Numbered from the stretch's first letter, positions 3,181 through 36,939 are shown. The stretch: DNA of 64,000 bases from Squalus acanthias (GCA_030390025.1 CM059432.1:86306001-86370000); one strand, 5' to 3'. Notes: generated by a model from the sequence alone, not told the origin. Translations and numbers: made by a program.

Positions 3181-3279
3181 GGATCAGGTTGCAGATGAGG
3201 ATCTTGGATTTGTTTGATTGACAGGTCATAAAACAAGTTGGAGATAGCGTGGAATTGGTGTATTCTTGGAAAGAAGAAG
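3181..3279 (-). CDS. Candidate internal coding exon of the unnamed minus-strand gene (C8orf89 syntenic position)
   Basis: Unique sequence bounded by tttcag| and |gtaagt; 99 nt; open in phase 1-1 ((A)SSFQEYTNSTLSPTCFMTCQSNKSKILICNLI), matching the phase-1 donor at 26025. Confidence 0.5.
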
Positions 3280-3599
3280 CTGAAACACACAGTATTTTAA
3301 AATTAATTTGCATATGAAGAAGTTTGGATTGCAGGAGATAGAAAGTGCAATTATCCTAATTGCAAGAATCATATTTTTTGAAATTAAACTTTCCTTCATT
3401 TACATCTAGCTGTGTGCCATTCAATTATTTTTAGTTTGTTTTAACCTACTTATCCCTGGTCTGTTGAAGCTCTTGAAAAAGTAGTTAGGGATGAGAGTCA
3501 AGTGAGAAGAATGCCCCAATCAGGTCTGGTAGAATAACATTGCTTAACAAATTTGCCCATGTTAGAATAAAAATTGCCCATGATTAAGATTGACACAGC

Positions 3600-4359
3600 G
3601 GCCCAGAAATTAGGCTCCCTGGCTTCCCGCGTATGCAAGGATCCCGCGCGCACCTACCTACCGTGCCTGCCGTTGACCTCTGGGCCCACGGGGACTTCAG
3701 CTCCTGGGCCTCCTGCAGCTGCCGGCACGCAGTGCTCGTGTATCCCAGGGGCGTAGTTAGTGCGATGCGTCCCCTGGGATCACGTGGGCCATGGAGAGCC
3801 AATGGCAGCAGACCATCTTTCATTCATAGATTTGACAGGAAGACCTGTCAAGTCTATGAATTGAAATCAGCCCCAAAACAACACCTAAACTTCAAATAAA
3901 TTTTAAAAATAACCATCACATTTTTAAAATAACTATAAGTTAAATAAACTACTTTAAACAAAAATTTAAATTTTTGAAAAAATTAAAATACTTTTTACAG
4001 TACTGAAAATAAACTTACCTTTCTTTAAAGTATCTAAAAAAGATAAACCTGTTGAAAATTTTTTAAATTCTAATTAATTAACCAATTACCTTGTTAAAAA
4101 CGGGTCTTGCGCCTCCTTTTTAAAAGCGCAGCTTCTTCAATACTTACCTTCCCGGAGAAACCTGAAAAAAAACTTAAGTTCGCTGCATGCTCGCAGCCTC
4201 TCCCGCGCACGCGGTTCACCTCTCAACCCCTCCCTTCACGAGACCGGAAGTTCCGGTTTCCCGCACATGCACAGTGCATGCAGGAAACCGACACTTCAGG
4301 AGGCCTTACGGGTGAGTACACAGCGCGTACTCACCCGGCAAGTGCTGAATTTTTGGCCC
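3600..4359. mobile_element. PIF/Harbinger-type MITE, family A copy 1
   Basis: Imperfect TIR GGCCCAGAAATT...AATTTTTGGCCC, 3-bp TSD AGC; colinear with 13414-14157. Confidence 0.85.
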
Positions 4360-4469
4360 AGCATTACAGGAAATGTTACTTAAATGTGTTATGCAACGAT
4401 GGTATGGGGAACGTTACATAAATATGTTACAGGAAGTGTATGGCGGCATGCACTTACATACTTTAATAT

Positions 4470-5045
4470 ATCTTTGGGTTTTATAAATAGAATACAAGAG
4501 TAAAGTGGTAATGGTAATGGTTAGGCCACAGGTAAAGAGTACTGTGTGCATTTTCAGCATCCCATTATAGAAAATAAAACACTAAAACCATAGAGCGCAT
4601 GCAACAGAAATTCACCAGAAGGAAGCCAAAAATGAGAAACTATAGTTAGGACGTGAGACGTGAAATATTCAGATTACTTCCACTAGAGCAAAGACTGCCA
4701 AAAGATTTTTAATATTATGAAGGGTTTTTATTTCCCCTGGTTGGGGAGTCAGCGACAAGGGGTCATGAATTGAAAATGGCCACTAAAAAGCAAAGAAAGC
4801 GGTTAGGAGAAATTCCTTTCACAGAGTTGTTGGAGCATGGAATGCTTTGCCACAGACAATAGTTGAGGCAAAGATCATTGCACCTTTAAGGGAAAAATGG
4901 ATATACATTTGACGCAGAGGAAGATAAAGGGTTATGAGGAGAGCACGGGAGAGTGGAATTAGTTTTGGATTGCTCTAGCAAAGAGCCAGTGCAGACATGA
5001 TGGAGCAAATGACCTCCTACCGTGTTGTACACTTCTACGGTTCTA
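4470..5045 (+). mobile_element. Degenerate CR1 3' fragment
   Basis: Decayed similarity to CR1 ORF2 C-terminus and 3'UTR. Confidence 0.7.
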
Positions 5046-5394
5046 CCTCCTGTGGTGTTGCTTAGATGAGTAGGAGGATATACAATATGCTATATAGCAT
5101 ACAATATACTGTAGAGCCACTGATTAATGGTGATTTAATTAAAAATGCAATTTACCTTATACAAAGTAATATGGAAGTGTTAGTGGTATTTTCAGGCTCA
5201 AATTATGTATGACGATGTCTTCAAAAATTTTAAATCAGTGGCCTTTATTGTATGTTTGTTTAGCTATTTAACAAACTTTTTGTCTTAGTTTTTAAAAGAA
5301 AGTCTAGGTTCCACAGGAAGACAGTAGAGAAAATATTCTAGGTTGGAGTTACAGCACTGAGGGGTGGGGAGTTACATGGTTTTGTAATAGAAGG

Positions 5395-6480
5395 TCGTCA
5401 TGGAAGTTTATAAACAAACAACAACCCATTTCACCCATTATGCCTGTGCCAGCTCTCTGGAAGAGCTATTCACTTGGTCCCATTCCCCTGACTTTACACA
5501 TACCCTTATTATATTTCAGATATTTATCCATTTCTCTTTTAAAAACTATGGAACTTGCTTCAGTCATAGTATTTACCTTATCAAAACTCCTCATAATTTT
5601 GAACACCTTTATCAGATCATCTCTTAACTTTCTTTGTTCTAATGAACAGATCCCCAGTTTCTCTAGTATCACCTCAATGTGTCTCATCCCCATATTTTAG
5701 TGAATCTTCTGTACCTTCTCCATGGTATCCTTCCTAAAGTAAGGACAATATTCTAATGCCTAACCAATTATTTGTATAGAAACATAGAAGATAGGAGCAG
5801 GAGTAGGGCATTCGGCCCCCTCGAGCCTGCTCCACCATTTAATGAGATCATGGCTGATCATCCAAATTCAGTACCCTGTCCCCGCTTTCTCCCCATATCC
5901 CTTGATCCCTTTAGCCTTAAGAAATATATCTAACTCCTTCTTGAATATATTTAATGAATTGGCCTCAACTGCCTTCTGTGGTAGAGAATTCCACAGGTTC
6001 ACCACTCTCTGGGTGAAGAAATTCCTCCTCATCTCAGTCCTAAATGGCTTACCCCTTATCCTTAGACTGTGATTTTATATAGATTTTGCATTACCTCTTT
6101 GCTTTTGTACCCGGTCCTTTTTATATAACGTAAGATCTCGTATGTTCTTTTTTTTAAAATGCTTTGTCAACTTGTCCTCATACTTTCATTGAGTTGTATA
6201 TCTGAACCTTTAAATCTGTCTGCTCCTCTACTCCTTTTAAAGTTTTGCCATTGAGTATATTGACTACTCCTGATAATTCAAAGGTGGTTTTCACATTTAA
6301 AAAATTTGAATTATTCAATAGTTTAAATTAAGCACTGTAAATAACACAATGTGGGAATTTAGTACTAAAAAAATTGAATCAGATAACTGCTCCACATTAA
6401 ATTTAATCTGACAACTATCTGCCCAATTTAGTAACTTACATTCTTCTTAAGTCATTTACAGTCATCTTCACAATTAACTA
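5395..6480 (-). mobile_element. Old CR1 fragment with a young CR1 3' end (5777-6071) nested in it
   Basis: ORF 5466-5693 (LEQRKLRDDLIKVFKIM); 5777-6071 is nearly the reverse complement of 18905-19198. Confidence 0.8.
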
Positions 6481-6975
6481 CACTCCCAGGTGCGAGACTT
6501 TGGCTTACTGGTAGCATTCCTGCCCAAGCCAGAAGGTGCAGAATTCTAACCCTGCTCCAGACATCCCAGCGAGTGGAGACTGGAGCTCCGGCTCTGAATT
6601 GCCGGTTGACATCCAGCTGATAGTCTACATACGACTGGTATTAATAGGTATAAACGCCCTGAAATCCTACCTGTAACTAGTATTAATCCAGTAACCTGCT
6701 AATATGCACCCTATAACTACAGTCAGAATCTCCCTGCACTGTACAAGGTGCGATTAGGCTCCCCAGTTGATGCCACTTTTAACAGACTCCATTTCTCTCC
6801 CTATCTCCTAGCTCCCTGGTTCTCTATGAAGGTGACAACTCTGAACTGGGAACCTCAATCAGAGCCAACATAGAATCATAGGATTATACAGCACAGAAGG
6901 AAGCTATTCGACCCATCATGCCTGTGCCGGCTCTTTGAAAGAGCTATCCAATTAGTCCCACTCCCCTGCTCTTTC

Positions 6976-8468
6976 GATGGAATCTGGAACTGTACCCATG
7001 GATTGGAGGGTAGCTAATGTTACCCCACTATTCAAAAAGGGTGGTAGAGAGAAAGCGGGGAATTACAGACCGGTAAGCCTGACATCGGTAGTGGGGAAAA
7101 TGCTAGAGTCCATTATAAAGGATGTAATAGCTGAGCACTTGAAAAACAGTGACAGGATCGGACAAAGTCAACATGGATTTACAAAAGGTAAATCGTGCTT
7201 GACTAATCTACTGGAATTTTTTGAGGATGTAACTGGGAAAATAGATGAGGGAGAACCAGTAGATGTGGTGTATTTGGACTTTCAAAAGGCTTTCGATAAG
7301 GTCCCGCAAAAGAGATTAGCGTGTAAAGTTAAGGCACATGGGATTGAGGGCAAGGTATTGACTTGGATAGAGAACTGGTTGGCGGACAGAAAGCAGAGAG
7401 TAGGAATTCATGGGTCTTTTTCCGAGTGGCAGGCAGTGACTAGTGGGGTACCGCAGGGATCGGTCCTTGGACCCCAGCTATTCACAATATACATTCATGA
7501 TCTAGATAAGGGAACTAAATGTAATATCTCCAAGTTTGCAGATGACACAAAGCTGGGTGGGCGTGTGTGCTGCGAGGAGGATACCGAGAAACTCCAGGAT
7601 GATTTGGACAGGTTGGGTGAGTGGGCAGAAGCATGGCAGATGCAATATAACGTGGATAAATGCGAGGTTATCCACTTTGGTATCAAAAACAGAAAGGCAG
7701 ACTATTATCTGAATGGCAATAGATTGGGAGAAGGGGAAGTGCAACGAGACCTGGGTGTCCTTGTGCACCAGTCGCTGAAGGTAAGCATGCAGGTGCAGCA
7801 GGCGGTGAAGAAGGCAAATGGTATGTTGGCCTTCATAGCGAAAGGGTTTGAGTATAGGAACAGGGATGTCCTGCTGCAGTTGTACAGGGCCTTGGTGAGA
7901 CCACACCTTGAGTACTGTGTGCAGTTTTGGTCACCTTATCTGAGGAAGGATGTTCTTGCCATGGAGGGAGTTCAGCAAAGATTCACAAGGCTGATACCTG
8001 GGATGGCAGGAATGACATATGAGGAGAGATTGGGTCGATTGGGCTTATACTCACTGGAGTATAGAAGAATGAGAGGGGATCTCATCGAAACATATAAAAT
8101 TCTGACAGGTCTGGACAAACTAGATGCAGGAAGAATGTTCCCGATGGTCGGAGAGTCCAGAACCAGGGGTCATAATCTAAGGATAAGGGGTAAGCCATTT
8201 AGGACAGAAATGAGGAAGAATTTCTTCACCCAGAGAGTGGTGAACCTGTGGAATTCTCTACCACAGAAGGTAGTTGAGGCCAAGTCATTAAATATATTCA
8301 AGAATGAGTTAGATATATTTCTTAAAGCTAAAGGTATCAAGGGATATGGGGAGAAGGCAGGTGCAGGGTACTGAGTTTGGATGATCAGCCATGATCTCAT
8401 CGAATGGCGAAGCAGGCTCGAGGGGCCAAATGGCCTACACCTGCTCCTATCTTCTATGTTTCTATGTT
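6976..8468 (+). mobile_element. Young 5'-truncated CR1 LINE with an uninterrupted RT-region ORF (6977-8374)
   Basis: 465-aa ORF with CR1 RT motifs; (TTCTATGT)n tail; TSD TCTTTC (6970-6975 / 8469-8474) inside the 3'UTR of an antisense CR1. Confidence 0.95.
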
Positions 8469-9239
8469 TCTTTCACTGTAGCCCTGCAAATTTTTCCTTT
8501 TTAGGTATATATCCACGTCCCTTTAAAGTTACTATAGATCCGCTCCCACCACCCTTTCAGGCAATGCATTCCAGATCATAACAACTTGCTGAGTAAAAAA
8601 AATTCTCCTCATCTCCTCCCTGGCTTTTTGTCAATTATCTTAAAGCTGTGTCCTATGGTTAACAACCCTCCTGCTAGTGGAAACAGTTTCTCCCTATCTA
8701 CTCTATTAATACCCTTTATGATTTTGAACACCTCTATTAAATCTTCCCTTAACCTTCTTTGCTTGAAGGAGAATAATACCAGTGTCTCTAGTCTCTCCAC
8801 ATAACTGAAGTCCCTCATCCCTGCCACCATTCTGGTAAATCTCCTTTGCATCTTCAAGGCCTTGACATCCTTTCTAAAGTGTGGTGCCCAGAATTGGACA
8901 CAATACTCTAGCTGAGGTCTAACCAGCGATTTATGAAGGTTTCTAACTTCCTTGCTTTTGTACTCTATGCCTCCATTTATAAAACCAAGGACCCGTATGC
9001 CTTTTAAAAAAAAAGCTTTATCAACTTGTCCTGACACCTTCAAAGATTTGTGTATGTGAACATCCAGGTCTATCTGTTCCTGCACCCGCATTAAAATTGT
9101 AACATTTAGTTTATACTGCTTCTCCTAATATTTCCTTCCAAAAAGCATCACTTCACACGTCTCTGCATTAAATTTCATCTGCCATGTGCCTGCCCATTTC
9201 ACCAGTCTGTCTTTTTTCTTTTTCTCTTTCCTCCTTTAA

Positions 9240-9382
9240 GATGCTGCTTAAAATCTACCTCTCATCTGCCCTAACAACTCCTTATATGGTTCGGTGTCAA
9301 TTTTTTTTTATAGCGCTTCTCTGAAGCGCCTTGGGACGTTTTACTACATTAAAGGCGCTATATAAATGCAAATTGTTGTTGT
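9240..9382 (+). mobile_element. L2-type LINE 3' end
   Basis: GAAGCGCCTTGGGACGTTTTACTAC...GGCGCTATATAAATGCAA(GTT)n, the same tail as 45540-45602. Confidence 0.7.
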
Positions 9383-10003
9383 CTATGTCCTCCTGAAATA
9401 TGCTACTATCCTCCTCACTGTTTACCACATTTCCAAGCTTTGTGTCATGCACAAACTTTAAAATGATGCCTTCTATACCCAAGTTAATATATATATATAT
9501 CAAAAAGATCAGTGCTCCCAATACCGACCCCTGGGGACACCACTGTACAATTCCCTCCAGTCCGAAAAACAACCATTCACTACTACTGTCTGCTTTCTGT
9601 CCCTCAGCCAATTTCGTATCCACGCTGCCACTGCCCCTTTAATCCCAAGGGCTTCAATTTTGCTAACAAGTCAATTATATGGCACTTTATCAAATGCCTT
9701 TTCAAAGTCCATATATACAACATCAACTGCACTACCTACCTTCATCAACCCTCTCCGTTATTTCATCAAAGAACTCAAATCAAGTTAGTCAGCCACGATA
9801 TACCTTTAATAAATCCGTGTTTGCTGTCATTTATTAACCCATATTTTTCCAAGTGACAATTAATTTTGTCTCGGATTATTGTCTCTAAAAGTTTCCCCAC
9901 CACTGATGGTAGGCCGACTGGCCAGTAGTTACCTGTTTTTTCTCTCTCCCTTTTTTGAACAGGGGTGTAACCCGGTGACTTTTATATCTTGAGCACTGCC
10001 AAT

Positions 10004-10158
10004 CAATGTTCCCTTTATTTATTTTGGGTGCGCAGACACTTTTAAGAGTCCTATTCAAAATACCGCGCATGTGCAGTTTCTCCTATTTAAAAGCCGGTGA
10101 ACCTGCTGTGCGGGAGCTGCAGAGCACTGCGTGGCCTCGCAGCTTAAAGGGAACATTG
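10004..10158. mobile_element. hAT-type MITE (family B)
   Basis: TIR CAATGTTCCCTT...AAGGGAACATTG; 8-bp TSD CTGCCAAT/CTGCCAAC; related copies at 45299-45431 and, partially, ~12610-12745. Confidence 0.8.
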
Positions 10159-10200
10159 CTGCCAACCGTTTTATACCTCTTCTTGATCTATTTTTATCCT

Positions 10201-10347
10201 TGATGCGGAGATGCCGGTGTTGGACTGGGGTGGACAAAAGTGAGAAGTCGCACAACACCAGGTTATAGTCCAACAGTTTTATTTGAAATCTTGTGATTTC
10301 AAATAAAACTGTTGGACTATAACCTGGTGTTGTGTGACTTCTCACTT
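10201..10347. repeat. Fold-back insertion with 53-bp inverted arms
   Basis: Arms 10238-10290 and 10295-10347, loop TTGT, one mismatch; flanking direct repeat TATTTTTATCCT (10189-10200 / 10347-10358). Confidence 0.85.
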
Positions 10348-11989
10348 ATTTTTATCCTATCCATTTTCTCTACCCCCTCCTCCTTTACTGTAACACTGGC
10401 AGTATCCTCTTTAGTGAAGACAGATGCAAAGTACTCATTTAGTACCACTGCATCCACAAGAATTCCTTTATGGTCCTCAATCGGCCCCACCTTTCCTTTG
10501 ACTATCCTTTTACTCTTTAAATGTTTATGAAAGACTTTAGTATGCCCCTTTATGTTGCCCGCTAATCTATTCTCATACGTTCTCTTTACCCCTCTTATTT
10601 CCTTTTTTAGTTTTCCTCTGCACTCTCTGCAGTCAGCTTGATTCTCTACTGTATTATGAACCTGACATTTATCCTTTTCTAGTTTCATTTTAACCTCAGA
10701 GGTTTAATCATCCAGTGAACTCTAGCTTTGGATGCCCTTCCTTTCCCCCTCATAGGAATGTGTCTAGTTTATACCTGAACTATCGCCTCTTTGAAAGTCT
10801 CCCATTGTTCATCGACTGTTTTACCTGCCAATCTTTGTTTGCAATCCACCTGGGCCAAATCCCTTTTCAACTCACTGAAATTAACCCTCTTCCAATTGAG
10901 TATTTTCACCTTTGATTGTCCTTTGTCCATTTCCATAACTGGTCTAAACCTAATGATATTGTGATCACTGTTTCTCACTGAAACATGCTCCACTTGCCCC
11001 ACTTCATTCCCCAGAACTAGATCCAACACTGCTTCTTTCTTCGTTGGGCTGGAAACATACTGATCAAGAAAGTTCTCTTGTACACATTTCAGGAATTCCT
11101 CCTCTCTTTGCCCTTAACACTGTTTTTTCCCCCAGTCTATATTAGGATATGTTCTTGGACTTCACGTGTCAAAACTGGCCAACACAGACCGATCAGAACC
11201 CAACTGGGAGACTGCGCAAAAAGCAGCAGGCTTGGTGTTTGGGTCACTTCTTACAGGGCATATCGTCCTAAATTCAGCTCAAATTTCTAAACCACTCCCT
11301 GGGTTTTGACTCAATAAAAGGAGAGCTTTCATAAAATGATAGAAATTACAGCACACAAAGAGGCTGTTAGGATGCCAGTGCTGCCACTCTCTGCTGTAAC
11401 ACTATCCCCCCAAATCATGTTATATTCCTCATTTTCATACTTAACTCACTCCCTTTTCAACGCCGCTCTACTCTGTGCCCCAATAGCCACATGGCGAAGC
11501 ATCCTATTGCATAATGGCCCTCATTTCAAAAACCTTCCCTCTCTCTTGGTTCTTCCAGTGAGAATCCTCAGTCTCTGTCCTCTTGTTCTCCATTTGCAAG
11601 GTGGAAACAATTTTTCACTATTCACACATATTAAAGTTCCCAGATTTCACTCACCCCTATACTGGCTGCTCATCTCTTGGCACTGCTCCACCATGTTACA
11701 GATGCTGCTCCTGGATCTGAAGGAAATGCTGGGCCTCCATGTCCACCCCATTCCCCAGTCTCCCTCTCTTCCGCTACCACCCAAGCCTCAATCTCCCCCG
11801 ACCACCATTCCTCCTCTCTCCCCTTGCCTGAGCCCCCATCCCGGAACTCCAGTCCCGTCTCCCTCTCCCCTGACCCCTAGCCCGCTATCACTCACTTCCC
11901 CCAACCCAAGCCCCAAACCACCCCACCTCCCGCCCCCGCCACACACTAGTTCATTCATCGTTGACTGTTCCCTGTTCTTTCAGTTTTTA

Positions 11990-12610
11990 TATTGAACCTA
12001 ATTATGTTAGCACTATGGCCTAGATGTTTCCTGAACCTTACGTTACCCATTTGTCCCACTTAATTTCCTAGAACTAGACCCAGCACTGCCTCTCTTCTAG
12101 TTGGACTAAGAATATACTGATCTAGAAAGAAGTCCTGGACGAATTGTAGAAACCCTCTCTTTATTTGCAACTTAACATTACTTTACAATCTATCTTTGGA
12201 TAATTAAAGTTACCCCATAATAATGGCCTTGATGTTCTTGCATCTTTCTCTAACTTATCTACCTAGCTTTTCCTTGATCGCTTTTCCAATGTTTGGCAAT
12301 CTATAATATACTCCCAATAGAGTTGCATTTCCCTTCCTTAACTTTAACCAAAAAGATTCAGCTTTTGTATCATCCTCATGTTCCAGTGTTTTAATGGAAT
12401 CTTCTATTAATACTGCCACACCTCCTTTTTCCTCCAATTCTATTTCTTCTGACTATTTCGTAACCAGGAATATTCAGCTCCCAGTCCTGTCCTAGCCTAA
12501 GCAACATCTCTATTAATGCTATTACTGTACATCATACCTCACATAGCAATTGGTGCTTCTAGCTCACCAATTTTATTCACGTTACTTTGTGAATTTATAT
12601 GCATATAACC
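11990..12610 (-). mobile_element. Degenerate CR1 endonuclease-region fragment
   Basis: ORF 12255-12437 GGVAVLIEDS...ESFWLKLR...LLGVYYRLPN is APE-endonuclease-like. Confidence 0.7.
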
Positions 12611-13413
12611 AATGTTCCCCCTAATTTTAAATGTGGGTGCGCAGTCCCTTTAATGGGCTGTATGGCCCAAGTTTTGTGCATGCGTTAAACTTCACATTGG
12701 AAGAGTTGGTCCCGGGCTGCGCGGGACCAGCAGACAGCCGCGCAACCTGTCTCATTCTGTTTGGCAATCTTACTCATTTTAATCCCTCCTCCTTCTGATT
12801 GGTTCTTTAAAACTTTCCTGTTTTTCTCTTATCTTTCCTACACTTATTATCCTTTTTGTCTCATCTTGTTTTCTCTATCATGTCCTATCCTCTCCCCTAT
12901 TCACTCCTGCAAATTAGTTCCCTCCATTCACACTCTACGATTTCATACTCCCCTCACTCACTCCATCTCCATGGCTGCTGCAGTCCCGCTTCAGCTGACA
13001 AGCAGATTAGACGGTTAAATGCATGGCTGAAAGAGTGGGGTGGGAGGCAGGGGTTTCAATTCATGGGGCACTGGCACCAGTACTGGGGAAAGAGGGAGCT
13101 GTTCCGTTGGGACGGACTCCACTTAAACCAGGCTGGGACCAGTGTCCTGGCGAATTGAATAACTAGGGTCGTAGATAGAGCTTTAAACTAATGAAGAGGG
13201 AATGGGAGGATTCAGAAAAGGGTATATTCAAAAGCAGTAAGAGAAATGTCAAGGCTGCAGAGCAGAGTAGCGATTTGGGTAAAAATAAGCAGAGTGGGTA
13301 AAAATAAGCAGAGTGGGTCAGGAAGGAACAGAGAGTTTAACAAAGGTAATAGGGCATCAGAGACTAAGGTGACATCAGGCAAAAGTAGAAAAAAAGTTAA
13401 AGTTAAAGGCATT

Positions 13414-14157
13414 GGCCCAAAAATTCGTGAGGAAGCCTTCGTGCGAGGGTAAGGCTTCCCCGCGATCTCTCACTGCGCGTTGGCTTTTTCAGTTCCAGCT
13501 CGCACGAACTTGATGTTCTGGACAGCTGCTGTGCTGGGCTTCCGTATCCCACAGGCGCAGTTAATTCGTGCGAGCTGTGGGATCACGTGACTCAGTTAGA
13601 GCCAATGGCAGCACACCATCTTTCATTCATAACTTTCACATAAGTGCTGTGAAAGCTATGAATACTATAGCCCCCCAAAAGAACAGCTAAACCTCAATTA
13701 AATTTAAAAAAAAAACCATCACATTAATAAAATAAGTATAGTTAAATAAATTAACCATTTTAAATAAAAAATTAAATTTTTGAAAAAATTTAAAATCTTT
13801 TAAAAAGTTATAAAAATAAACTTACCTGTCTTTAAAGTCTCTAAAAAAGATATACCTGTTAAAAAAAATTCAAAATAATACTTAATTCACTACTTACCTT
13901 GTTAAAAGTGGGTCTTACTCCTCCTTTCTTGATGTGTAAAATCTTCCATACTTACCTGCGCGTTGAAACCACTAAGTGCACTGCATGCGCGCAGCCTGTA
14001 GCGCGCACGCGGTTCACTTAGGAACCGCCCCCTTTTCCATTCACCAAGTGCCGGTTTTCAGCGCATGCGCAGTGCATGCAGAAAACCGGCAATTGGAAAC
14101 AGAATACGCGAGAGTACGCAGTGCGTACTCTCGCGTATCAAGACAAATTTTTGGGCC
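13414..14157. mobile_element. PIF/Harbinger-type MITE, family A copy 2
   Basis: Perfect TIR GGCCCAAAAATT...AATTTTTGGGCC, 3-bp TSD ATT; removing it restores CR1 codons AAG GCA TTA TTT CTG AAT. Confidence 0.9.
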
Positions 14158-14276
14158 ATTATTTCTGAATGCGCAAAGCATTTGCAACAAAATAGATTAA
14201 TTAATAGCACAGATAGAAATAAATTGGTTTGATTTAATAGTCATTATGGAGACATGGTTGCAGAGTTAGGAACTAA

Positions 14277-16507: not shown

Positions 16508-16633
16508 TAAATATGGAAAATGGAAAATGGGGATGGGGGTGGGTAGCCCTGATAATAAAGGATGGGTTAAACACAGTAGAGAGAAAGGATCTTAGCTCAG
16601 AAAAACAAGATGTACAATCACTTTGGGTGGAGC

Positions 16634-24689: not shown

Positions 24690-25340
24690 ATTCTCAGGGT
24701 GTCAATGACACTGGACAAGGTAACATTTATTGCTTAGCCCTAGCTGCTCTTAGCACATGATCATCCGCCTTCTCTTTGATTTGCTGCAATCTTTGTAGCA
24801 ATAGTGCTCCCACAAGGGTGTAGGTACAGAATTCTAGGATATTGACCTGGAGACAATGAAGGAACAGCAAGATATGTCCAAGTCAGAATGGTGTGTGACT
24901 TGGAGGGTAACCTGGAAGTGACCATAATCCCATGACAATGCTGCACTTGTGACTCCAACTATATAGAGAAGGAAAGTCTGTTCAAAGTAACCTTGGTGAG
25001 TGGCTGCATTATGTAGATTGTACATACTGCAGCTACAGTGCACAGGTACAATGGAGGGGTTGGATGTTAAAGTCCAGTGACAGGGTGCAGATCATTCAAC
25101 ATGCTCTGCCCTGGATGATGTTGAGCTACTTGAGTGTTGTCGTAGCTGTACCTATCCAGACAACTGGTGAGTATTCCTTCACAATCCTGACTTAAGCTTT
25201 GTAGATAGTGGAGCCAAACATTGAGATTGTCAGCAGACAGCCCATTCCTGACCTTATGACAGAGTGAAGGTCATTGGCGAAACAGTTGAAGATGTTTGGA
25301 CCGAGGACACTTTCCTGAGGAACTGCGGCTGTGATGTTTT
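24690..25340 (-). mobile_element. Degenerate copy of the second LINE family
   Basis: HFQVTLQVTHHSDL and VPQESVLGPNIFNCFANDL resemble 19498-20303 and its RT. Confidence 0.65.
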
Positions 25341-25401
25341 TTCTCCAACAACCATAACCATCTTTCTTTCCATCAGTTGAGAGCTGTGTTCCCTTTAAGC
25401 T

Positions 25402-25476
25402 GTGCATATGCGCGCGGCCGCGCAGCAAGTTTGACCGTGCATATGCGCGCGGCCGCGCAGCAAGTTTGACCGTGCA
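25402..25476. repeat. 35-bp tandem duplication within a probable hAT-MITE remnant
   Basis: GTGCATATGCGCGCGGCCGCGCAGCAAGTTTGACC x2, preceded by TGTTCCCTTTAAGCTG resembling a family B end. Confidence 0.7.
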
Positions 25477-26024
25477 GCGCAGTAAAAGAAACCATCCGTG
25501 CACTCTGCTCAGGCTCACAACAGCGGGGTCTTTAATAACACAGCAAAGCAACGGGGAGAGGGGCGGGGCCACACCCGCCCTGACCGACAGCCCGCTCCAA
25601 AAGAATGGGTCTAGATGAAGTGTAAATGGCGATGGCAGAATGAAGAGAAACAAAATGGAAAAAAAAGGATTGGGGCAGAGGTTATGGTCTGAAATTGTTG
25701 AACTCGATGTTGAGTCCAGAAGGCTGTAAAGTGCCTAATCTAAAGATGGATTGTAACGGTGAAGGATTCACTTGTCTTCAACTTGCTGTGATTACTTCAA
25801 GAAAGATTCAACCAGTAATGGCACATTATCAAAGGCTATCAGCTGTATACTTTTAACTATTGAACAAAATTGTTTTGCTAAAAGATCATTAGTGTGTCGC
25901 TGCACTGGGATGGTATATTAAATCTAGGAGAAAATGCAACCAAATAACCACTGACAAAGCTCGTTGGAAAACAGTAACAAGTCCCCACAATCTGTGCTCC
26001 TTCATAATAAGAGTATTTAGTCAC

Positions 26025-26425
26025 CGTACTCAGATCCACAATCACCGTAACTCGGATGCTCTGAAACCGGTTGTACTGTATTGTGAATCTTGACCTTCTG
26101 TGGTTCCCGTTCCATTGAGGGCCGCAGGTGCAGCCACCTGTCAGTGATCTGCTCTGGGTCGATTTTGTGTTTATTTGCTGCTAGGAGTCGCTGCTGTTCA
26201 GACAGATAAGTGTTGTTACCAACACTGTTAATGGGCGATGGTAAATACTGGTCGCTGTTTGCTGAGGGTAAACGGAGGGGAATTGGGCTCATGGCAATGA
26301 GGGTCTGTGGAGATGTCACTGCTGCTGATAGACACATTTACTGTGAATAAACATCCTACCAGTCCACACGAGTGCTAACAATCGGTCTTTCCTCATCACC
26401 TGCATTTTCTGGCAAACTCTTGTAC
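26025..26425 (-). CDS. Candidate exon 2 of the unnamed gene: ends ORF-A (TAG 26356-26358) and starts ORF-B (ATG 26337)
   Basis: Acceptor tctcatttctatcaccttactcag|, donor G|gtgact; 104-codon open frame MCLSAAVTSPQ...SYGDCGSEY in unique sequence. Confidence 0.5.
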
Positions 26426-26810
26426 CTGAGTAAGGTGATAGAAATGAGATGAATCAATCTGCAACATTCCCTCAAAAGCCATCCATAAAACAGAACAGCG
26501 AGTGGAAGTAACAGTGGCTTCATCCACTCTGAAAGTGAGCTGAATTCATGTTCTCAAGAGTGAGTCTGACCGACCTCGACAAAGCAGCGATTTACACCAA
26601 GAATTGTTGGAAATACAATCATCACCACCCTGTCAGGGAGCGGTCTGCGGTACGGATTTAGTCCATGAAACAGCTCCCCTCTAGTGGGGTAACAAACCAG
26701 CAATCGCTGATCAAAGTAAGTGAGGTGCTGGAGTATGTCCCGAAAGATGGGAAGGTCCCATCCCCCGGACAGTGATTAGGGCACTGAGAAAACTCCCGCC
26801 CTCATTAGAT

Positions 26811-27655
26811 CAGTGGTACTCAAACCGGGGTCCGCGAGATTTCGGGGGGGGCCCACCAAAAATGTGTAAAAAAATGGACGTGATAATAGACCAATCAGAA
26901 TCGGAGTCAGGAAAAGCGGCGGTTGTTAATCAAGGGATGCCGTCGGAAAGTGAATCAGAGCCGGGGTCGCTCTGTGTTCGCACAGATTTTGGTTGAACAG
27001 TGGAGAGAGAGAGCTGGTCCGGTCCGTGCATGAGGCAGCGTTGCTGTTTGGACACAGCGCGCGGAGGGAGACCCTGGAGGGCAGCACTGAGAATCGGTGC
27101 CAGAGAGAGACCGTGACTTAAAGCTTCATCTCTTGTTTCCTCAGTGGCATAATTATATGCGTCAAATCAGTTGGCAAAATTCTCCGTGTGTCCATATTTA
27201 CTTCGCACTTCTGATTTCTCCTTAGTTCCACCCCGTGCGTGTGATTGCACTTAACAAATCTTGTCCTTGTTTGTATTTTTATGTTGTTCGTAAAGCAGCA
27301 GCTGGCAAGGCTAGGCCTGTGCTGGATGGTCACAGCCATTGCACTAAAACCCAATATTTGGAAAAGTGTTTATATGTCATTGGAGTCAGAGTATGCGTGT
27401 GCCATTTGAGTGGAAAAACACTGGTCAAGACAGGGCTTGTTACAACTGCTGTGCAGCTGACTTTATTAAACTAAACCATTAATGCAGATATTGTATATGT
27501 ATGTTATGATTTTGTAATTCCATGAGTGAATTTACAAGAGTGGGAAAGTTGCAATTACTATAATATATAGTATTACAATTTAGATGGGGGGGGGGGGCAT
27601 GATTACTAATCCATTTGTAAAGGGGACTTCAACCAAAAAGGTTTGAGAACCACTG
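26811..27655. mobile_element. Non-autonomous hAT (Charlie-like) element
   Basis: TIR CAGTGGTACTCAAACC / GGTTTGAGAACCACTG; perfect 8-bp TSD CATTAGAT. Confidence 0.9.
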
Positions 27656-27975
27656 CATTAGATGACCAACGGGGAAGAGCTCAGAGCCCTCAGGCTGTTT
27701 CTTCAGGTGTATATAATGCCCTCCCGCCTCCTCTTCACATTGCAGGAGGGAAGGCGACCAGAGGATTGTCCACTCCGCCGAGGCGGCAACAAGGTGGCGA
27801 GATTTGTTCCTTATGATGCATTTTATTAGCGATCAGTGATTGCTGTTTCTGGATAAGGTTAAACAAATGCAACGTTTTATTAGGAAAATCCAGCCATGAC
27901 TTAATTTAAAAACAAGGAGTCCAGAAATTGGAATATAATCTCCAGCTGGATACAGGGACTGCAGGGGACATTGAA

Positions 27976-28163
27976 TGTGTACAGTAGTTCTATCTGATCT
28001 GTCCATTCCTCCCATCTGTGTACAGTAGTTCTATCTGATCTGTCCATTCCTCCCATCTGTGTACAGTAGTTCTATCTGATCTGTCAGTTCCCCTCCCTCT
28101 GTCTACAGTAGTTCTATTTGATCTGTCTATTCCCCTCTGGTGTACAGTAGTTCTAGCTGATCT
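27976..28163. repeat. Minisatellite, ~41-bp unit, ~4.5 copies
   Basis: TGTGTACAGTAGTTCTATCTGATCTGTCCATTCCTCCCATC repeated at 27976, 28017, 28058, 28100 and ~28140. Confidence 0.9.
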
Positions 28164-28425
28164 CATCTCGCATCTGGTTCTTTTTCCAATCACCTTAAAT
28201 ATGTGTCCTCTGGTTACCGACCCTCTTGCCAGTGGAAACAGTTTCTCCTTATTTACTCTCCTAAAACCCCTCAAAATTTTGAACACCTCTATTAAATCTC
28301 CTCTTAACCTTCTCTGCTCTGAGGAGAACAACCCCAGCTTCTTTAATCTCTCCAGATAACTGAAGTCCCCCATCTCTGGTACCATTCTAGTAAATCTCCT
28401 CTGCATCCTCTCCAAGGCCTCAAGA
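28164..28425 (-). mobile_element. CR1 ORF2 C-terminal fragment
   Basis: MQRRFTRMVPEMGDFSYLERLKKLGLFSSEQRRLRGDLIEVFK. Confidence 0.85.
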
Positions 28426-28639
28426 TATTAGAACCTGAACTGGGATTGCTTGATGTGAAGAGGGGAGTCAGGAGAAAGAGATAAAGTGAAGATATCAACT
28501 CTTCAAAGACTCCAAAAAGTATTTGTGCAGTGAACAAAAATAATGAAAGATCTGAATTTTCTGCTGTAGCTGTTGTTGTTGTTGTTAACTGCCCATGGAC
28601 AAAAAAGTCATGCTCAGAGGAGTTTGTCACCCGCCCAGT

Positions 28640-29530
28640 ACAAATAAAATATGAGAGGGAACGTTGGTTGAGAGTTTTCCTTTTGATCCCCATTGAGCTC
28701 AGTTTTGCCAGGGCTTCTTGGTGCCATAGTCAGGTGAAGGCTGCCTTGACGTTGAGGACAGCTACTCTCACCCCTCCTCTAGCATACCGCTCTTGTGTCG
28801 AAGTTTGGATTAATGCTGTGATAAGGTCTGGAGCAGAGTGGTTCTGGTGGAACCGAAAATGAGCATCAGTGAGCAGGTTATTGGTGCAGGTATTACGGGG
28901 AGCGGGCAGGAAATTGGACATGAGGCTGAGTTCGGATCGGTCGAGGCCCTGTGGGTGGCGTAGCGGGCCCAGGGGCTGAGTGGCCAGGTCCTGCTCCTAC
29001 TTCTTGTGTTCTTTAGATTTGAGGTGAGGATCAGATCAGCCATGATCTTATTGAATGGCGGAGCAGGCTCGAAGGGCCGATTGGCCTACTCCTGCTCCTA
29101 TTTCTTATGTTCTTATGTATCACTTGAAGGCACTATTGATGATTCGTTCCATCACTTTACTGACGACTGCGAGGAGGCCAATAGGGTGGAAATTGGCTGA
29201 GTTAGATTTATCCTTTTTGTTTGGTTAGGACATACATGGGTAATCTTCCATATTGTGGAGTTGATGCCAATGTCATAGCTGTACTGGAACAGCTCAAGTA
29301 GGAGAGTGGCTAGCTCTGGTACACAGGTCATCATCACCACAACCAAGTTGCTGTCAGGGCCCAGAGCCTTTGCTGCGTCTAGTGCACTCATCATCTTCTT
29401 CTCGTCACATGTAGAGAACCAAATCTTGTTGGACACTGGCAGCCATGATGGTGACGACAGCAGGAGGTGACCAAGTAGAATCATCCACTCAGCGCTCTGG
29501 CCAAAGACGTTTGCAAACACTTTACTCTTC
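28640..29530 (-). mobile_element. Degenerate second-family LINE RT fragments with a nested CR1 3' tail (~29015-29118, +)
   Basis: HFRFHQNHSAPDLITAL...VAVLNVKAAF; KALGPDS...CVPELATLLLELFQYSY. Confidence 0.65.
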
Positions 29531-29693
29531 ACTTTAGGGTCTCAAATCTAATAGGGCTGCTGGCCCTGACAATATTCACTCTAGGATCCTCAAAAAAATG
29601 GGGGATATGTTAAGTGAGCTTACATATTTAATAACAACAGAAAACGCTGGAAAAACTCAGCAGGCCAGGCAGCATCCGTGGAGAGAGAAAGAG

Positions 29694-29730
29694 AGTTGAC
29701 GTTTCAGGTCGATGACCTTTCATCAGAACT
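29694..29730 (-). ncRNA. Minimal type I hammerhead ribozyme (inverted pLTR copy)
   Basis: Exact reverse complement of 31259-31295. Confidence 0.75.
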
Positions 29731-31258
29731 GGGAAGAGCTGGAAATCAAATAGATTTAAGGCCAGAGTAAAGCTGGGAAAAGGGGGAGGGGATAAAGGAA
29801 CAAAAGAGGAGATGAAGAGACATTAAGAGACATTAAGAGCTAGAGGTGGTGTTAATGTGACAGATTAAGGCTGAATGAAGTGTGAAATCTACTGGCAGAA
29901 TGAAGGACAGCTGCCAGCTTCTAGGAGGAAAAAAAAGGTGGGGGGGACAAATAAAAGGGTGGATAAAATAAAATATAAATGTGATTGGAGCTGAGGTTAT
30001 GATCTAAAATTGTTGAACTCGATATTGAGTCCAGAGGGCTGTAGCGTGCCTAAACGAAAGATGAGGTGCTGTTCCTCGAGCTTACGCTGAGCTTCCGTGG
30101 AACAGTGTATTAGGCCGAGGACGGCTACCTGGACTACACTTCCTCCCACCCCGCCTCCTGTAAGGACTCTATTCCATTCTCCCAGTTTCTCCGTCTCCGC
30201 CGCATCTGCTCTGATGATGCCACCTTCCATACCAGTGCTTCCGACATGTCTTCCTTTTTCCTCAACCGAGGATTCCCCTCTACCGTGGTCGACACGGCCC
30301 TCGACCGTGTCCGTTCTATCTCCCGCACATCTGCCCTCACCCCTGCCCCTCCCTCCCGGAACCACGATAGGGTTCCCCTTGTCCTCACCTTTCACCCCAC
30401 CAGCCTCCACATTCAACGGATCATCCTCCGCCATTTCCGCCACCTCCAGCGTGATCCCACCACCAAACACATCTTCCCCTCACCTCCCCTTTCAGCATTC
30501 CGCAGGGACCGCTCCCTCCGCGACACCCTAGTCCACTCCTCTACCACCCCCAGCACCCCTTCCCCTTCGCCCGGCACCTTCCCGTGCACGCGCAGGAGAT
30601 GCAACACATGCCCTTATACCTCCCCTCTTCCCACTGTCCAGGGCCCCAAACACCCCTTCCAGGTGAAACAGCGATTTACTTGTACTTCCTGCAATTTAGT
30701 ATACTGTATTCGCTGCTCACGATGTGGACTCCTCTACATTGGGGAGACCAAACGCAGATTGGGTGACCGCTTTGCGGAACACCTCCGTTCAGTCCGTAAG
30801 GGGGACCCCGAGCTCCCGGTGGCCTGTCACTTTAATTCACCGCTTCACTCCCACTCTGACCTCACCGTCCTCGGCCTAATACACTGTTCCACGGAAGCTC
30901 AGCGTAAGCTCGAGGAACAGCACCTCATCTTTCGTTTAGGCACGCTACAGCCCTCTGGACTCAATATCGAGTTCAACAATTTTAGATCATAACCTCAGCT
31001 CCAATCACATTTATATTTTATTTTATCCACCCTTTTATTTGTCCCCCCCACCTTTTTTTTCCTCCTAGAAGCTGGCAGCTGTCCTTCATTCTGCCAGTAG
31101 ATTTCACACTTCATTCAGCCTTAATCTGTCACATTAACACCACCTCTAGCTCTTAATGTCTCTTAATGTCTCTTCATCTCCTCTTTTGTTCCTTTATCCC
31201 CTCCCCCTTTTCCCAGCTTTACTCTGGCCTTAAATCTATTTGATTTCCAGCTCTTCCC

Positions 31259-31295
31259 AGTTCTGATGAAAGGTCATCGACCTGAAACGTCAACT
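31259..31295 (+). ncRNA. Minimal type I hammerhead ribozyme
   Basis: agtt-CTGATGA-a-aggtc(atc)gacct-GAAAC-GTC-aact: catalytic core boxes, stem II, loopless stem III and a GUC triplet. Confidence 0.75.
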
Positions 31296-31409
31296 CTCTT
31301 TCTCTCTCCACGGATGCTGCCTGGCCTGCTGAGTTTTTCCAGCGTTTTCTGTTGTTATTTCGGATTTCCAGCATCTGCAGTATTTTGCTATCGTATTACA
31401 TATTTAATA

Positions 31410-34120
31410 GTTCATTAGAGACTGGGATTATTCCCGTGGATATTTAAAAAGGGCAGCAAGTCAGAACCAGGAAAATATAGGACCATTAGCTTAACTTAGA
31501 ATCATAGAATGGTTACAGCACAGAAGGAGGCCATTTGGCCCGTCAAGCCCGTGCTGGCTCTCTGCAAGAGCACTTCAGCTAGTCCCACTCCCCCGCCCTT
31601 TCCCCAGAGCCCTGCAAACTTCAGTTATTGAAAAGTTGTTAGAAGGGATTAGAGATAACCTGTATGATTACATAAGAACATAAGAAATAGGAGCAGGAGT
31701 AGGCCATTCGGCCCCTTGAGCCTGCTCCGCCATTTAATAAGATCATGGCTGATCTTCTACCTCAACTCCACTTTGCTGCACTATCCCCATATCCCTTGAT
31801 TCCCTTAATATCCAAAAATCTATCGATCTCTGTCTTGAATATACTCAACAACTGAGCCTCCACAGCTCTCTGGGGTAGAGAATTCCAAAGATTCACCACC
31901 CTCTGAGTGAAGAAATTTCTCCTCATCTTCGTCCTAAATGGCCGACCCCTTATTCTGAGACTGGGATTGTTCCCGTGGATATTTAAAAAGGGCAGCAAGT
32001 CAGAACGAGGAAAATATAGGATCATTAGCTTAACTTAGAATCATAGAATGGTTACAGCACAGAAGGAGGCCATTTGGCCCATCGAGCCAGTGGCGGTTCT
32101 CTTATTACCTGGACATAATCATTATTAGAGACTCCCAACATGGTTTCCGGAAAAGAAAGTTATGTCTCACCAACTTGGTTGAATTTTTTGAGGAGGTAAC
32201 TAGGTTGGTGGATGAAGGTAGCCCTGTCAAAATTAGTTATTTGGACTTTCAGAAATTTTTTTGACAAAATACTGCATAATAGGTTATTTTATAAGATAGA
32301 GTCCCGTGGGATAGGAGGGCAGATCCTGGATTGGCTAGGGAATCAGTTGGGTTCTTGCAGGTGGAAGGTTGTTAGTAATGGAAGTGGTTCTGTGTGGAGA
32401 CCAGTTACTAGTGGAGACCCGCAGGGATCAGTGTTGGGACCGCTATTCTTCACGATCTAAGTGATGGTGTGGCGGGTACTGTCTACAAGTTTACAGACGA
32501 CACGAAGATCTGTGCTTGTGTTAGGACCCTTGATGGGGTCTTAATGAAAAAAAACTACAGTCTGATCTAAATACGATGTGGCAATGGGCCCGCATCTGAC
32601 AGATGTCATTTCATATAGATAAATGCAGTGTCAAGCATGTGGATAGGTAGGGCTAATGCCAAGCATGTATATGCCATGCTTGGTACAGAATTGAAGTCTG
32701 TTGAGCAGGAAAAATACTGGGGCATTATAGTACGAATCTCTGAAGGTGCACAGCCAGTGCCACAAAACTATTGAGAAGGCGAATAGAGTACTAGGATATG
32801 GCGAGGACAATTCATTATAAAACTAAAAGAACTATATATAGTGTCCTTCTACAAGACTCTAATTAGGCTTCATATGTTAAGTTTTGGTCCTGTGACATGG
32901 TGTGTGATGGAGAGGCCATGGGAACGGTGTAAATGAGGGCCACTAGAATGATCCTGGTCAGACCACACTTGAGTACTGTGCACAGTTCTGATCTCCCTAC
33001 TATTAAAAGGACATAGAAGCACTGGAGAAAGTGCAAAAAAGATTTACAAGATGGTACCAGAATTGAGAAATTACAGCTATTAGGAAAGATTAAACAGGTT
33101 GAGTCTTTTAGAAAAGAGAAGACTTAGAGGAGACCTGATAGAGGTTTTTAAAATTATGAATGGGTTGGACGGGGTAGATGTGGAGAGAATGTTTCCACTT
33201 GTGGGCGAATCCAAAACTAGGGGCCATAAATACAAGATAGTTACTAATAAATCCAATAGGGAAATGAGGAGAAATTTCTTTACGCAGAGAGTGGTTAGAA
33301 TGTGAAACTCACTAAGAGAGGAAGTGATTGAGGCAAATAGTTTAGATGCTTTCACAAAGGAAACTAGATGAGTACATGAGAGAATAGGGAATAGAAAGAT
33401 ATGCTGAAAGGCTGAGATGAGATAGATGGAATGGGAGGAGACTCATGTGGAGTGTAAATACCAGCAGACTAGTTGGGCCAAATGGCCTGTTTCTGTGCAG
33501 TATATTCTATGTAATTCTATGTAGAAATCCCTAGTGTAAAAGCCCTCAGTTATCACAATAGGTTTAGAGACTTTTAGAGTCATTTTATTCTAGAAAAACT
33601 TCTCGGAGATTTAATTGAAGTGTTTAAAATGATGAAGGGACTAGATTGTCTCTGTGGACAGACTATTTGAACTAGATAGGTTAGGGAAAATGAGGGGCCA
33701 TGCGTATAATCTATGCAACTATACACCTAGGTTAGAGGTCATGAAGGTGTTTCTTTATGCAGGTTTGTCGCCACTTGGAACAAGTTACCGACTCATGTGG
33801 TGGGTACGGATTTGCTGCAACAGTTCAAAAAAGGGGCTGGTTGAGTTTCTTGCTGTAGCTAATATGACTTGACTACAAAACGTTGGTGGGGCATCAGCTA
33901 TGTACCTCATGGTCACTGTGACCTCCTGGAACTTGTTTGGGTCACAGAGGGGTTTCCCAGATTTCCCCCCCCCTCAATTAGCCTATTGTTCTTTAAAAAT
34001 CTGTTTTTTTGCCTCTTCAAGAAAATTACATGACTATAAGTAGGAGGGCATACTAGGAGTCATGATGCTTCTGGACCCGACGGTCTTTTCCTATCCGTCT
34101 TTTCGTATGCTTTTATGTTC
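31410..34120 (+). mobile_element. Old CR1 (continuing from ~29540) with nested younger CR1 3' fragments (31497-31620 -, 31670-31962 -, 32955-33522 +)
   Basis: Decayed RT motifs ([26 protein letters not shown]); ORFs 31762-32025 and 33099-33305. Confidence 0.75.
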
Positions 34121-34774
34121 GTTTCTTGCACTTAGATACTGGACTTTGCTCAGATTAGAGATGGGGATATTCACAGACCCTCCACCTCCTCCTGCAGGTT
34201 GCCTGGTTGGCTACCACCACTCTCAACTGGATTTGGTAGGGCAACAGAGCTTTGTTCTGATCTTCTGGTGGTGTTAATTTTAAATAATATAAATTTCCCC
34301 AGGTTATGCTGATGATATATCCTTTTTACAATCCTGTCCCCATGGGAATCCCACCCACCGTCCCCATAATGAGAAAAGCAGCATTCACAGCTGTTTCTGA
34401 GAACTGGCTTAGTCCTTCAAGCGTTTTAAAAATCTCAAATTGAATTTTTAAAGCACTTAAACTCCTCAAGAATCTTAAACTGGCTGTGGGTAATGCCCAA
34501 CAATGTGATTTTTCCACTGCAGGGGGCGAGGAACACAAGGTCAGATCACAAATATACTATTATCACCCCTCTCGACCAGTTAAGAATTAAGGGCAGACTA
34601 TGCAACTCACTAGAGGATTGGGAGTTACATTTTTAGTGAGATGATCTAACACCGTCATTGCACACATATTTGGGGACAGTAAAAGTACCATTAATTTATG
34701 AGTCCAGTGGAAGCTCAATTTGTATGATTTTTAACTTTTACCAGACCAGGTCAATAAATCCAGTATATATATGG

Positions 34775-35092
34775 ATCGGCAGCACCTCCCAAACCTGCGA
34801 CCTCGACCACCTAGAAGGACAAGGGCAGCAAGCGCATGGGAACACCACCACCTCCAAGTTCCCCTCCAAGTCACACCCCATCCTGACTTGGAAGTATATC
34901 GCCGTTCCTTCATCGTCGCTGGGTCAAAATCGTGGAACTCCCTCCCTAACAGCACTGTGGGAGTACCGTCACCACACGACTGCAGCGGTTCAAGAAGGCG
35001 GCTCACCAGCACCTTCGCAAGGGCAACTAGGGATGGGCAACAAATGATGGCCTTGCCAGCGACACCCACATCCCATGAACTAATAAAATAAA
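34775..35092 (+). mobile_element. 3' end of a second-family LINE
   Basis: RQHLPNLRPRPPRRTRAASAWEHHHLQVPLQ matches 19980-20300. Confidence 0.85.
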
Positions 35093-36323
35093 CTGATAGT
35101 CCCTCCAACGACATGCAGGAGCCAATAGATTACATTTTGGTAAAGGTGAACTAGCCTGTAATAGATATAATTTAACTTGCACTTCTCAGTCAGCTACTAG
35201 CAAAGATTTTGCTGCACCACATCTTATATTACTGCCTATCCCTCTTCCATGCAAATCCTCTTCCCAAGCACGCTGTCATGCAAGTGTACCTTCAAAGATT
35301 TAAAGTGGTCAAGTGATATGCTTTCAGTATTCCAAATTTGAAAATCTCTAACCATAAGTTCAATTCTTCCTGAATCACTGATATCTTAATTAATTCTTTA
35401 ACTTGACGGTAGTTAATCATGTTTAAAGCTAACAATATCCAGAAAGCTAGAGAGTTCCTCTGCCCCAGCAATTTAAAATGTTGGTCAGCCCCCTTCAGCA
35501 CCCCAATTTATTATAAGGCAAGATATCACCATTACCAACATTCTAAATAGTGCCACAAACAACAATTAATGAGAGCCTTACAACTCAACTGTTCAATGGG
35601 TAACTGAAATTGAGTCATTCTGATGCATCCCAACACCCAATTGTTCCAGTAGGCAATAAAACAGTAATTTGTAAAATAAGTAGTTGTTGCCTTCTCAATC
35701 TGTAATTAAACAGAAAGCTGCCCTTGTTGCCCAGAACATAAATACGCTGCATGATGTGTTAAACAACACACAGACCTGGAAGTTTCCAAGTTCAATACCC
35801 ACTCTGTGCCAAGTTAGCTGATCACAGATAGAGCACTGCTCTCCCTAGCTTGGGGAAGGGTAAAGTCATCTGGGGTTTCTATTCCTGATAGCTACCCAGT
35901 GACCAATGCTGAAAGATTCATACACGGATATGAGGGAATAGAGGGGTACCAGGCAGAGGGAAAAGAGGCAATTAGAGCGAGAGGAGTCTAAACACCAGCA
36001 TGGGCCAGTTGGGCCGAATGATCTGTTTCCGTGCTGTTGATTTTCTATGTAATTGGATATCAGTAGAGGACAGGATCAAACACATCAAATAACCTGTCAA
36101 CACTCACTGCCTGGATCCATACAAAAAGAATGGCCACTTGGAAGGGCAATCAGTATTTAGGCAACCACCATTCCGCTGAACAAGTCACTGGTATTGACTT
36201 CTGTGGGCGCAATTGTCAGACAGAAGCGGTCCACCGGTGCACAATGGCAGGGAACCTTCATCCCACACCAGTTAAAGCATAAAGAGGGCTGGCAATATCG
36301 AGCTCATTGCTCTCCGCACTTAC

Positions 36324-36583
36324 TTTCGCAACTGTTCCACTTCGTACATTTCCTCGCGTTTATGCGTTCTCTTGCAGCTGTCCCGTAATGGCCTGGCTCG
36401 GTGTCTCGGTGGAGGCTGAAGTCCAGTTTCAGGCTGCAAGGGGGATAGGGACGGCGCCAGGCCCCCAACTTTAAACACCCGTCGGGGTGGAGCTGTCGGT
36501 CCGCGTCGCCGATACTCAGAAACCTCTTCCAGGAGCTGATAGTCGTCGTCCTCGTCATCATCGTCGTCCGCATCCAACCACAT
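36324..36583 (-). CDS. Candidate first coding exon (ORF-A) of the unnamed minus-strand gene
   Basis: CpG-rich unique sequence; MWLDADDDDEDDDYQLLEEVSEY...EVEQLR followed by a strong donor AA|gtaagt (phase 2). Confidence 0.5.
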
Positions 36584-36800: not shown

Positions 36801-36939
36801 TAATAGAACCATATACTGGTTTGCCGCAGTGTCATCAAACAGAAAAACCCTAGCAAAAGTAACCCCTTTCTAGAGGGGCACAACTACTATAAAACGAAAC
36901 CGTAAAACAAAAGGAAACTTATAAAATTAAATATTATCT

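Follow-up and report, generated by a model that had tools for sequence, protein, structure and literature searches.

A predicted single-frame C8orf89-like gene of Squalus acanthias and the open frames in its first intron

Exons, open frames and splice signals of the locus

The window analyzed here is a 64,000-nucleotide (nt) stretch of the Squalus acanthias genome (GCA_030390025.1 CM059432.1:86306001-86370000), numbered from its first letter, and our subject is the minus-strand locus between 36583 and 3181, which appears to belong to a C8orf89-like gene. A first-pass annotation had proposed that three unique-sequence exon islands are spliced here into one mRNA with two tandem open reading frames (ORFs), i.e., an acidic ORF-A of 109 amino acids (aa) followed by ORF-B, which would run on in frame through a 99-nt exon, making the message bicistronic or giving it a long upstream ORF (uORF). 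The segments and frames concerned, as we now read them, are the following:

36324..36583, minus strand: first coding exon of the putative C8orf89-like gene (86 codons plus 2 nt, acidic N-terminus, phase-2 donor)
3280..36323, minus strand: intron 1 (33,044 nt, phase 2), rich in LINE-like (long interspersed nuclear element) and other repeats
3181..3279, minus strand: second coding exon, 99 nt long with phase 2 at both ends; some isoforms of the relatives leave it out
26025..26425, minus strand: middle segment (an exon in the first-pass annotation), read here as intronic and as probably part of a low-copy, unclassified, decaying repeat
26020..26337, minus strand: ORF-B, a 106-codon open frame, most likely due to chance
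26360..26425, minus strand: candidate in-frame cassette of 66 nt (donor GT at 26359), unsupported

On the sequence, every position, splice dinucleotide, stop and spacing given in the earlier description was confirmed to the letter. That is, the ATG at 36583 lies in the context TAAATGT, and a GTAAGT donor follows 36324; an AG precedes 26425, and the joined ORF-A has 109 aa and the stop TAG at 26358-26356; a second ATG, at 26337, stands directly behind a TAA and 18 nt past the ORF-A stop, and opens 104 codons up to a GT at 26024; and the 99-nt segment 3279-3181 is flanked by an AG and a GTAAGT donor.

Upstream of the main start, five ATGs lie within 36596-36835 on the minus strand. An in-frame uORF of 23 codons starts at the one at 36673, which has a strong context; another uORF, out of frame and 12 codons long, starts at 36596 and overlaps the weak main ATG at 36583; if transcribed, such short uORFs could damp translation.

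Homology of the exons and identity of the gene

The exon-1 peptide retrieved a Scyliorhinus torazame protein of 75% identity whose cluster includes a 287-aa RefSeq isoform; this isoform in turn led to 14 more proteins, and cluster look-ups gave 38 relatives, all from sharks and skates. These 38 cartilaginous-fish proteins, which form the comparison set used throughout, are predicted gene models rather than reads, and none of them need be from Squalus acanthias. When all were searched against the window (tBLASTn, E<=0.01), exon 36583-36324 was matched by 36 (53-75% identity, E of 1e-24 to 3e-43), the other two being fragments of later exons. Exon 3279-3181 was also matched by 29 of those 36, from nine shark species, and in all 29 the exon-1 match ends at residue 95 and the match to the 99-nt exon starts at residue 96 or 97, with nothing between. 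Of the remaining seven, four are skate proteins, two are Heptranchias isoforms in which exon 1 is followed by later exons, and one is a model with exon 1 alone. In contrast to these two segments, which the relatives show to be real coding exons, the middle segment proposed to lie between them is unconfirmed, being matched by none of the 38 at this threshold in any frame (the best match in a 700-nt search had E 0.028, on the opposite strand). The relatives thus bypass it, and exon 1 is joined directly to the 99-nt exon in 29 of the 36.

The frame in which the 99-nt exon is read leads to the same picture. The exon has two open frames, and the one beginning at its second base (FFFPRIHQ...) is matched by 29 of the 38 relatives at 75-88% identity, as opposed to none for the frame in which ORF-B would enter it and likewise none for the third frame; hence, the proposed in-frame continuation of ORF-B finds no counterpart in the comparison set. 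A direct join of 36324 to 3279 across the phase-2 donor preserves the conserved frame without a stop, whereas two stops and a change of phase come in with the 401-nt insert. The 66-nt cassette at 26360-26425 would leave the main frame open and is absent from all 38 relatives' proteins; the relatives do carry many optional phase-preserving cassettes in their C8orf89-like gene. On these comparisons of sequence, the main protein begins with the first 86 codons of ORF-A, a conserved N-terminus, so that ORF-A counts neither as a uORF nor as 5' untranslated region, and the suggestion of a long uORF is not supported. The structure of the first two exons is already known, having been modeled in nine other sharks.

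The 99-nt exon is absent from all four skate proteins (P0017, P0039, P0040 and P0041), and it may be either shark-specific or skipped in skates.

Regarding the identity of the gene, many of the relatives are named si:ch211-171b20.3 in RefSeq, and two skate proteins, both from Rhinoraja, are named "putative uncharacterized protein C8orf89 homolog"; exon 1 matches both of the latter at 53% identity (E about 1e-24), as compared with 65-75% for the shark models. DUF5537 (PF17690), the Pfam family of which we take human C8orf89 to be a member, was found in the C-terminus of three of five relatives scanned (35.5, 35.7 and 29.4 bits; the Pfam cut-off is 28.4 bits). The surroundings are also as expected: an RPL7-like gene with six coding exons lies on the minus strand at about 57854-50676, head-to-head with an RDH10-like dehydrogenase whose exon begins at 58338 on the plus strand (short-chain dehydrogenase, Pfam adh_short, E 4.5e-24), the two starts being about 480 nt apart across a CpG-rich stretch. 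The neighbors are presumably RPL7 and RDH10 themselves, and we assume the human order to be the same, with C8orf89 downstream of RPL7 on the same strand and RDH10 head-to-head with RPL7. With orthology to annotated homologues, DUF5537 in the relatives and RPL7/RDH10 synteny (the order being presumed) all found, the locus is most simply interpreted as a C8orf89-like gene, an orthologue within a DUF5537-type family. The earlier guess that this is the C8orf89 locus, made from gene order, is thus borne out by the RefSeq names of the relatives and by DUF5537 in their C-termini.

Within the RPL7-like gene, an intron stretch together with part of the third exon (56612-56279) is duplicated into a later intron (51520-51186) on the minus strand, with 256 of 307 aligned bases identical.

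An AlphaFold model of the C8orf89-like protein from a 15-sequence alignment was of low confidence throughout (predicted local distance difference test, pLDDT, of 36), in which the conserved end forms a terminal helix. The protein had no match among PDB sequences at E<=1, no catalytic family was found when relatives were scanned, and its ESM Atlas matches (0.76, bacterial) were disregarded. There is about an even chance, in our judgment, that it is mostly disordered and serves as a testis-biased adaptor, with an acidic N-terminus and with the conserved C-terminal helix as its binding site for a partner. Literature searches on the DUF5537 family, on bicistronic shark mRNAs and on the synteny genes listed nothing on the structure of the gene. 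Human C8orf89 is described as testis-biased in the accessible part of one source (10.1101/2024.07.22.603147), and it figures only as an expression quantitative trait locus (eQTL) gene in the accessible part of another (PMC9954093).

The middle segment and other repeats in intron 1

Within the window, each of the three segments is unique, as originally described, but the middle one is multi-copy in two public runs. These two runs, which come from one study, share part of the ORF-B words and, judging by their size, are probably genomic DNA of related animals, were aligned to 25850-26650 at 80% likeness. They placed 21 and 13 contigs, respectively, on this stretch, overlapping up to five deep and 2-10% diverged among the 16 of 34 pieces listed. 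Because more than two diverged versions occur at one place, we infer that the middle segment belongs to a repeat of low copy number, the extra contigs being its paralogous copies. Pooled species, rather than paralogues, could theoretically lie behind the overlapping contigs, but this is unlikely with 2.1-2.8 Gb of contigs, and ORF-B is broken either way. Two further runs, presumed to be RNA, placed no contigs on 25850-26650, which is uninformative either way; the stretch lies between exon 1 and the 99-nt exon and includes neither.

The related DNA shows the segment in decay. A change at 26245 creates a stop at codon 31 of ORF-B and is present in 47.2 of 47.2 and 20.9 of 20.9 of the depth in the two runs (three contigs per run). 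Among the indel entries chosen by support (12 of 23, pooled over copies), ORF-B carries a 7-nt loss at codon 41 and a 2-nt loss at codon 1, and the tail of ORF-A, within the 66-nt cassette, carries a 1-nt loss and a 5-nt gain. Among the substitution entries chosen in the same way (40 of 112), 22 lie in ORF-B, of which 15 are non-synonymous and 7 synonymous; with 23% synonymous expected without selection (p=0.23), these fit neutral change, although the test is a rough one. Given such stops, frameshifts and neutral-looking change, the view of the segment as constrained coding sequence fails.

ORF-B itself has no homologues among 1.84 billion protein representatives searched with no length limit, nor among longer proteins (183-2000 aa), and 179 pattern matches in metagenomes yielded none that was confirmed. 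Its only Pfam matches were below threshold (DUF4708, E 0.06; MADF, E 0.15, 12.9 bits vs. a cut-off of 22), the Homeodomain profile gave no match at E<=1, and the search against PDB sequences returned only proteasome chaperone 2 (E 0.54) and no homeodomain at E<=10. ESM Atlas scores were 0.79-0.84 (homeodomain clusters, 0.79-0.82), all below the 0.9 cut-off, and the single-sequence AlphaFold model (pLDDT 55, predicted template modeling score of 0.15, one helix) was too poor to judge a three-helix fold. A Homeodomain or Myb/SANT (MADF) identity for ORF-B is accordingly not supported, as no profile matched above its cut-off.

By eye, ORF-B residues about 40-75 (26190-26110, minus strand) show a Tyr/Leu/Arg/Gln/Ile/Trp spacing loosely like that of homeodomain helices 2-3. 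Sub-threshold as they are, this spacing and the Atlas neighbors could be a clue to where the repeat came from. As its class, we weighed a relic of the Harbinger Myb/SANT type and one of the homeobox type and set both aside, the hints being sub-threshold only; six other open frames around the middle segment and two at 15.1-15.4 kb had no Pfam match at E<=0.1, and the repeat is therefore left unclassified.

Signals such as those of the middle segment are common in the 33,044-nt intron. It holds 77 acceptors with a pyrimidine count at least equal to that at 26425 and 82 donors no worse than that at 26025 in their match to the consensus; such a donor lies 50-450 nt downstream of 36 of the 77 acceptors, which makes 36 pairs that score at least as well as the middle segment. 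TAAATGT occurs in seven copies, 11 sense-strand frames that begin with ATG reach at least 100 codons, and an ATG frame of at least 104 codons was present in 50 of 60 random sequences with the same dinucleotide composition. The splice score is a crude consensus count, on which the true sites in the window reach only 6-8 of 9 (donor) and 8 of 16 (acceptor); it was dropped as a discriminator, the true sites scoring no better, and shows only how common such signals are. Chance is thus the most likely source of the segment's splice-like signals and its 106-codon frame.

The surrounding sequence is rich in other repeats, with about 34% of the window recurring elsewhere in it. One element could be delimited 0.4 kb upstream of the middle segment:

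26811..27655: non-autonomous hAT-type DNA transposon (miniature inverted-repeat transposable element, MITE), 845 bp, with 16-nt terminal inverted repeats and an 8-bp target-site duplication

The terminal repeats of the MITE are 94% complementary, and its target-site duplication consists of identical 8-mers at 26803-26810 and 27656-27663; it has the short terminal inverted repeats and the 8-bp duplication in common with non-autonomous hAT elements. A second inverted pair of 18 nt (26695-26712 and 27831-27848) encloses the MITE and may be an older element or chance. Long open frames at 6956-8371, 16580-19104, 20706-21860, 30114-30989 and 39659-40780 resemble, on inspection by eye, pieces of LINE reverse transcriptase and a fragment of Penelope-like type. 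Rfam gave no match in the window at the gathering threshold, snoRNAs included.

Competing explanations and known systems

We consider it highly probable that the locus is a single-ORF, multi-exon gene of the C8orf89/DUF5537 type with a decayed copy of a low-copy repeat in intron 1. Under this model, translation would start at the ATG at 36583, the spliceosome would remove the 33-kb intron 1 between the phase-2 donor at 36324 and the acceptor at 3279, and the repeat copy at 26425-26025 would normally go with it. The 99-nt exon would be followed, in phase 2, by further exons left of the window that, judging from the relatives, end in DUF5537, for a product of perhaps about 250-400 aa with several optional phase-2 cassettes; as in the relatives, these phase-preserving cassettes would vary the product. 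Exon homology, the conserved frame, the phase arithmetic and the decay of the segment in related DNA all support this model, which presumes that Squalus acanthias splices as its relatives do.

Several observations weigh against it. The junction 36324/3279 rests on the gene models of other species, not on Squalus acanthias transcripts; the DUF5537-coding part would fall outside the window, beyond its left end, and among the five relatives scanned one scored just under the cut-off (28.0 bits) and another had no match. Further, the pyrimidine tract of the acceptor at 26425 (12 of 16) is better than that of the true acceptor at 3279 (8 of 16), and this acceptor looks retained in the copies, which makes its occasional use plausible. 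Finally, one contig keeps the ORF-B frame over a net 12-nt deletion, although it should share the codon-31 stop, and the orthologous contig, if there is one, cannot be singled out, both DNA-like runs being from one study.

The good acceptor at 26425 leads to an alternative in which the main product is the same and this lineage occasionally includes the segment derived from the repeat as a minor exon of its own. In its 401-nt form, such an exon would place an early stop 331 nt upstream of the next junction, far more than the 50 nt beyond which nonsense-mediated decay (NMD) applies, and should act as a poison exon; in its 66-nt form, it would be an in-frame cassette ending at the GT at 26359. 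That the 66-nt form preserves the frame, and that the gene has many optional cassettes in the relatives, are both consistent with this alternative, and species-specific cassettes derived from transposons or intronic sequence are common in mammals, about 68-69% of them being NMD-linked, according to the accessible part of PMC3176834. However, the segment is found in none of the 38 relatives' proteins (NMD forms, to be sure, would not show as proteins), its donors, with 7 and 6 of 9 positions agreeing with the consensus, are weak, the intron offers 36 equally good pseudo-exons, and copies of the repeat carry frame-breaking indels inside the 66 nt. On balance, we think a minor exon of this kind improbable.

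The bicistronic mRNA of the first-pass annotation, in which leaky scanning or re-initiation would allow translation of the 109-aa ORF-A and of ORF-B downstream of it, seems to us very unlikely. Its sequence features are literally present, both ATGs are in a weak context, and ORF-B shows faint helix-turn-helix hints (MADF, E=0.15; homeodomain clusters, 0.79-0.82). These hints nevertheless stay below their cut-offs (22 bits and 0.9, respectively); ORF-B lacks homologues, has the codon-31 stop and frameshifts in related DNA, and shows no synonymous excess; the conserved 99-nt exon would be read in a frame that matches none of the 38 relatives; and re-initiation after a 109-codon ORF is generally inefficient. 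The claim fails, in short, on ORF-B conservation and on the frame of the 99-nt exon. It also runs into refuting outcomes of the kind that the annotation itself named, in that the relatives' models pass over the middle segment and related DNA shows frameshifts and neutral-looking change in it. A variant of it, which we also hold to be most improbable, is that the repeat copy was exonized in this shark lineage alone and lost the stop carried by the other copies, such that some testis transcripts give a truncated 109-aa acidic protein and a re-initiated newborn ORF-B; the exonized repeat would then possibly be a decayed homeobox- or Myb-like relic. The two-protein feature, therefore, is very probably not real; if it were, it would represent a rare vertebrate two-protein mRNA and the birth of a gene from a repeat.

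Under the favored single-ORF model, a gene found at its expected place matters little in itself. C8orf89 is, however, an uncharacterized, testis-biased gene that only 8 papers of the library searched mention, and studies of it could be helped by the cartilaginous-fish proteins, which are roughly double the DUF5537 model in length and have optional phase-2 cassettes and an acidic N-terminus that is conserved.

Among known systems, the apparent tandem two-ORF layout resembles that of SNURF-SNRPN, MIEF1/AltMIEF1 and ASNSD1/ASDURF, and the likeness ends there: in those mRNAs the two ORFs are both translated and have been conserved across long distances, whereas ORF-B lacks homologues, appears broken in related DNA and would put a conserved exon out of frame. 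The DUF5537 model is matched by the C-terminal 60-100 residues of the relatives; it has 160 positions, as opposed to about 250-400 aa for the shark proteins, and the N-terminal exons, i.e., the part in the window, do not match it. The closest likeness is to the chondrichthyan si:ch211-171b20.3 models (e.g., Heptranchias perlo XP_067836555.1, Scyliorhinus torazame XP_072323659.1 and Rhinoraja longicauda XP_078254843.1), from which exon 1 of the window differs by in-frame losses of one residue at its start and eight in mid-exon. These models share with the window the acidic exon 1 (53-75% identity) and its exon boundary, and the shark models among them also share the 99-nt second exon, in the same frame and at 75-88% identity.

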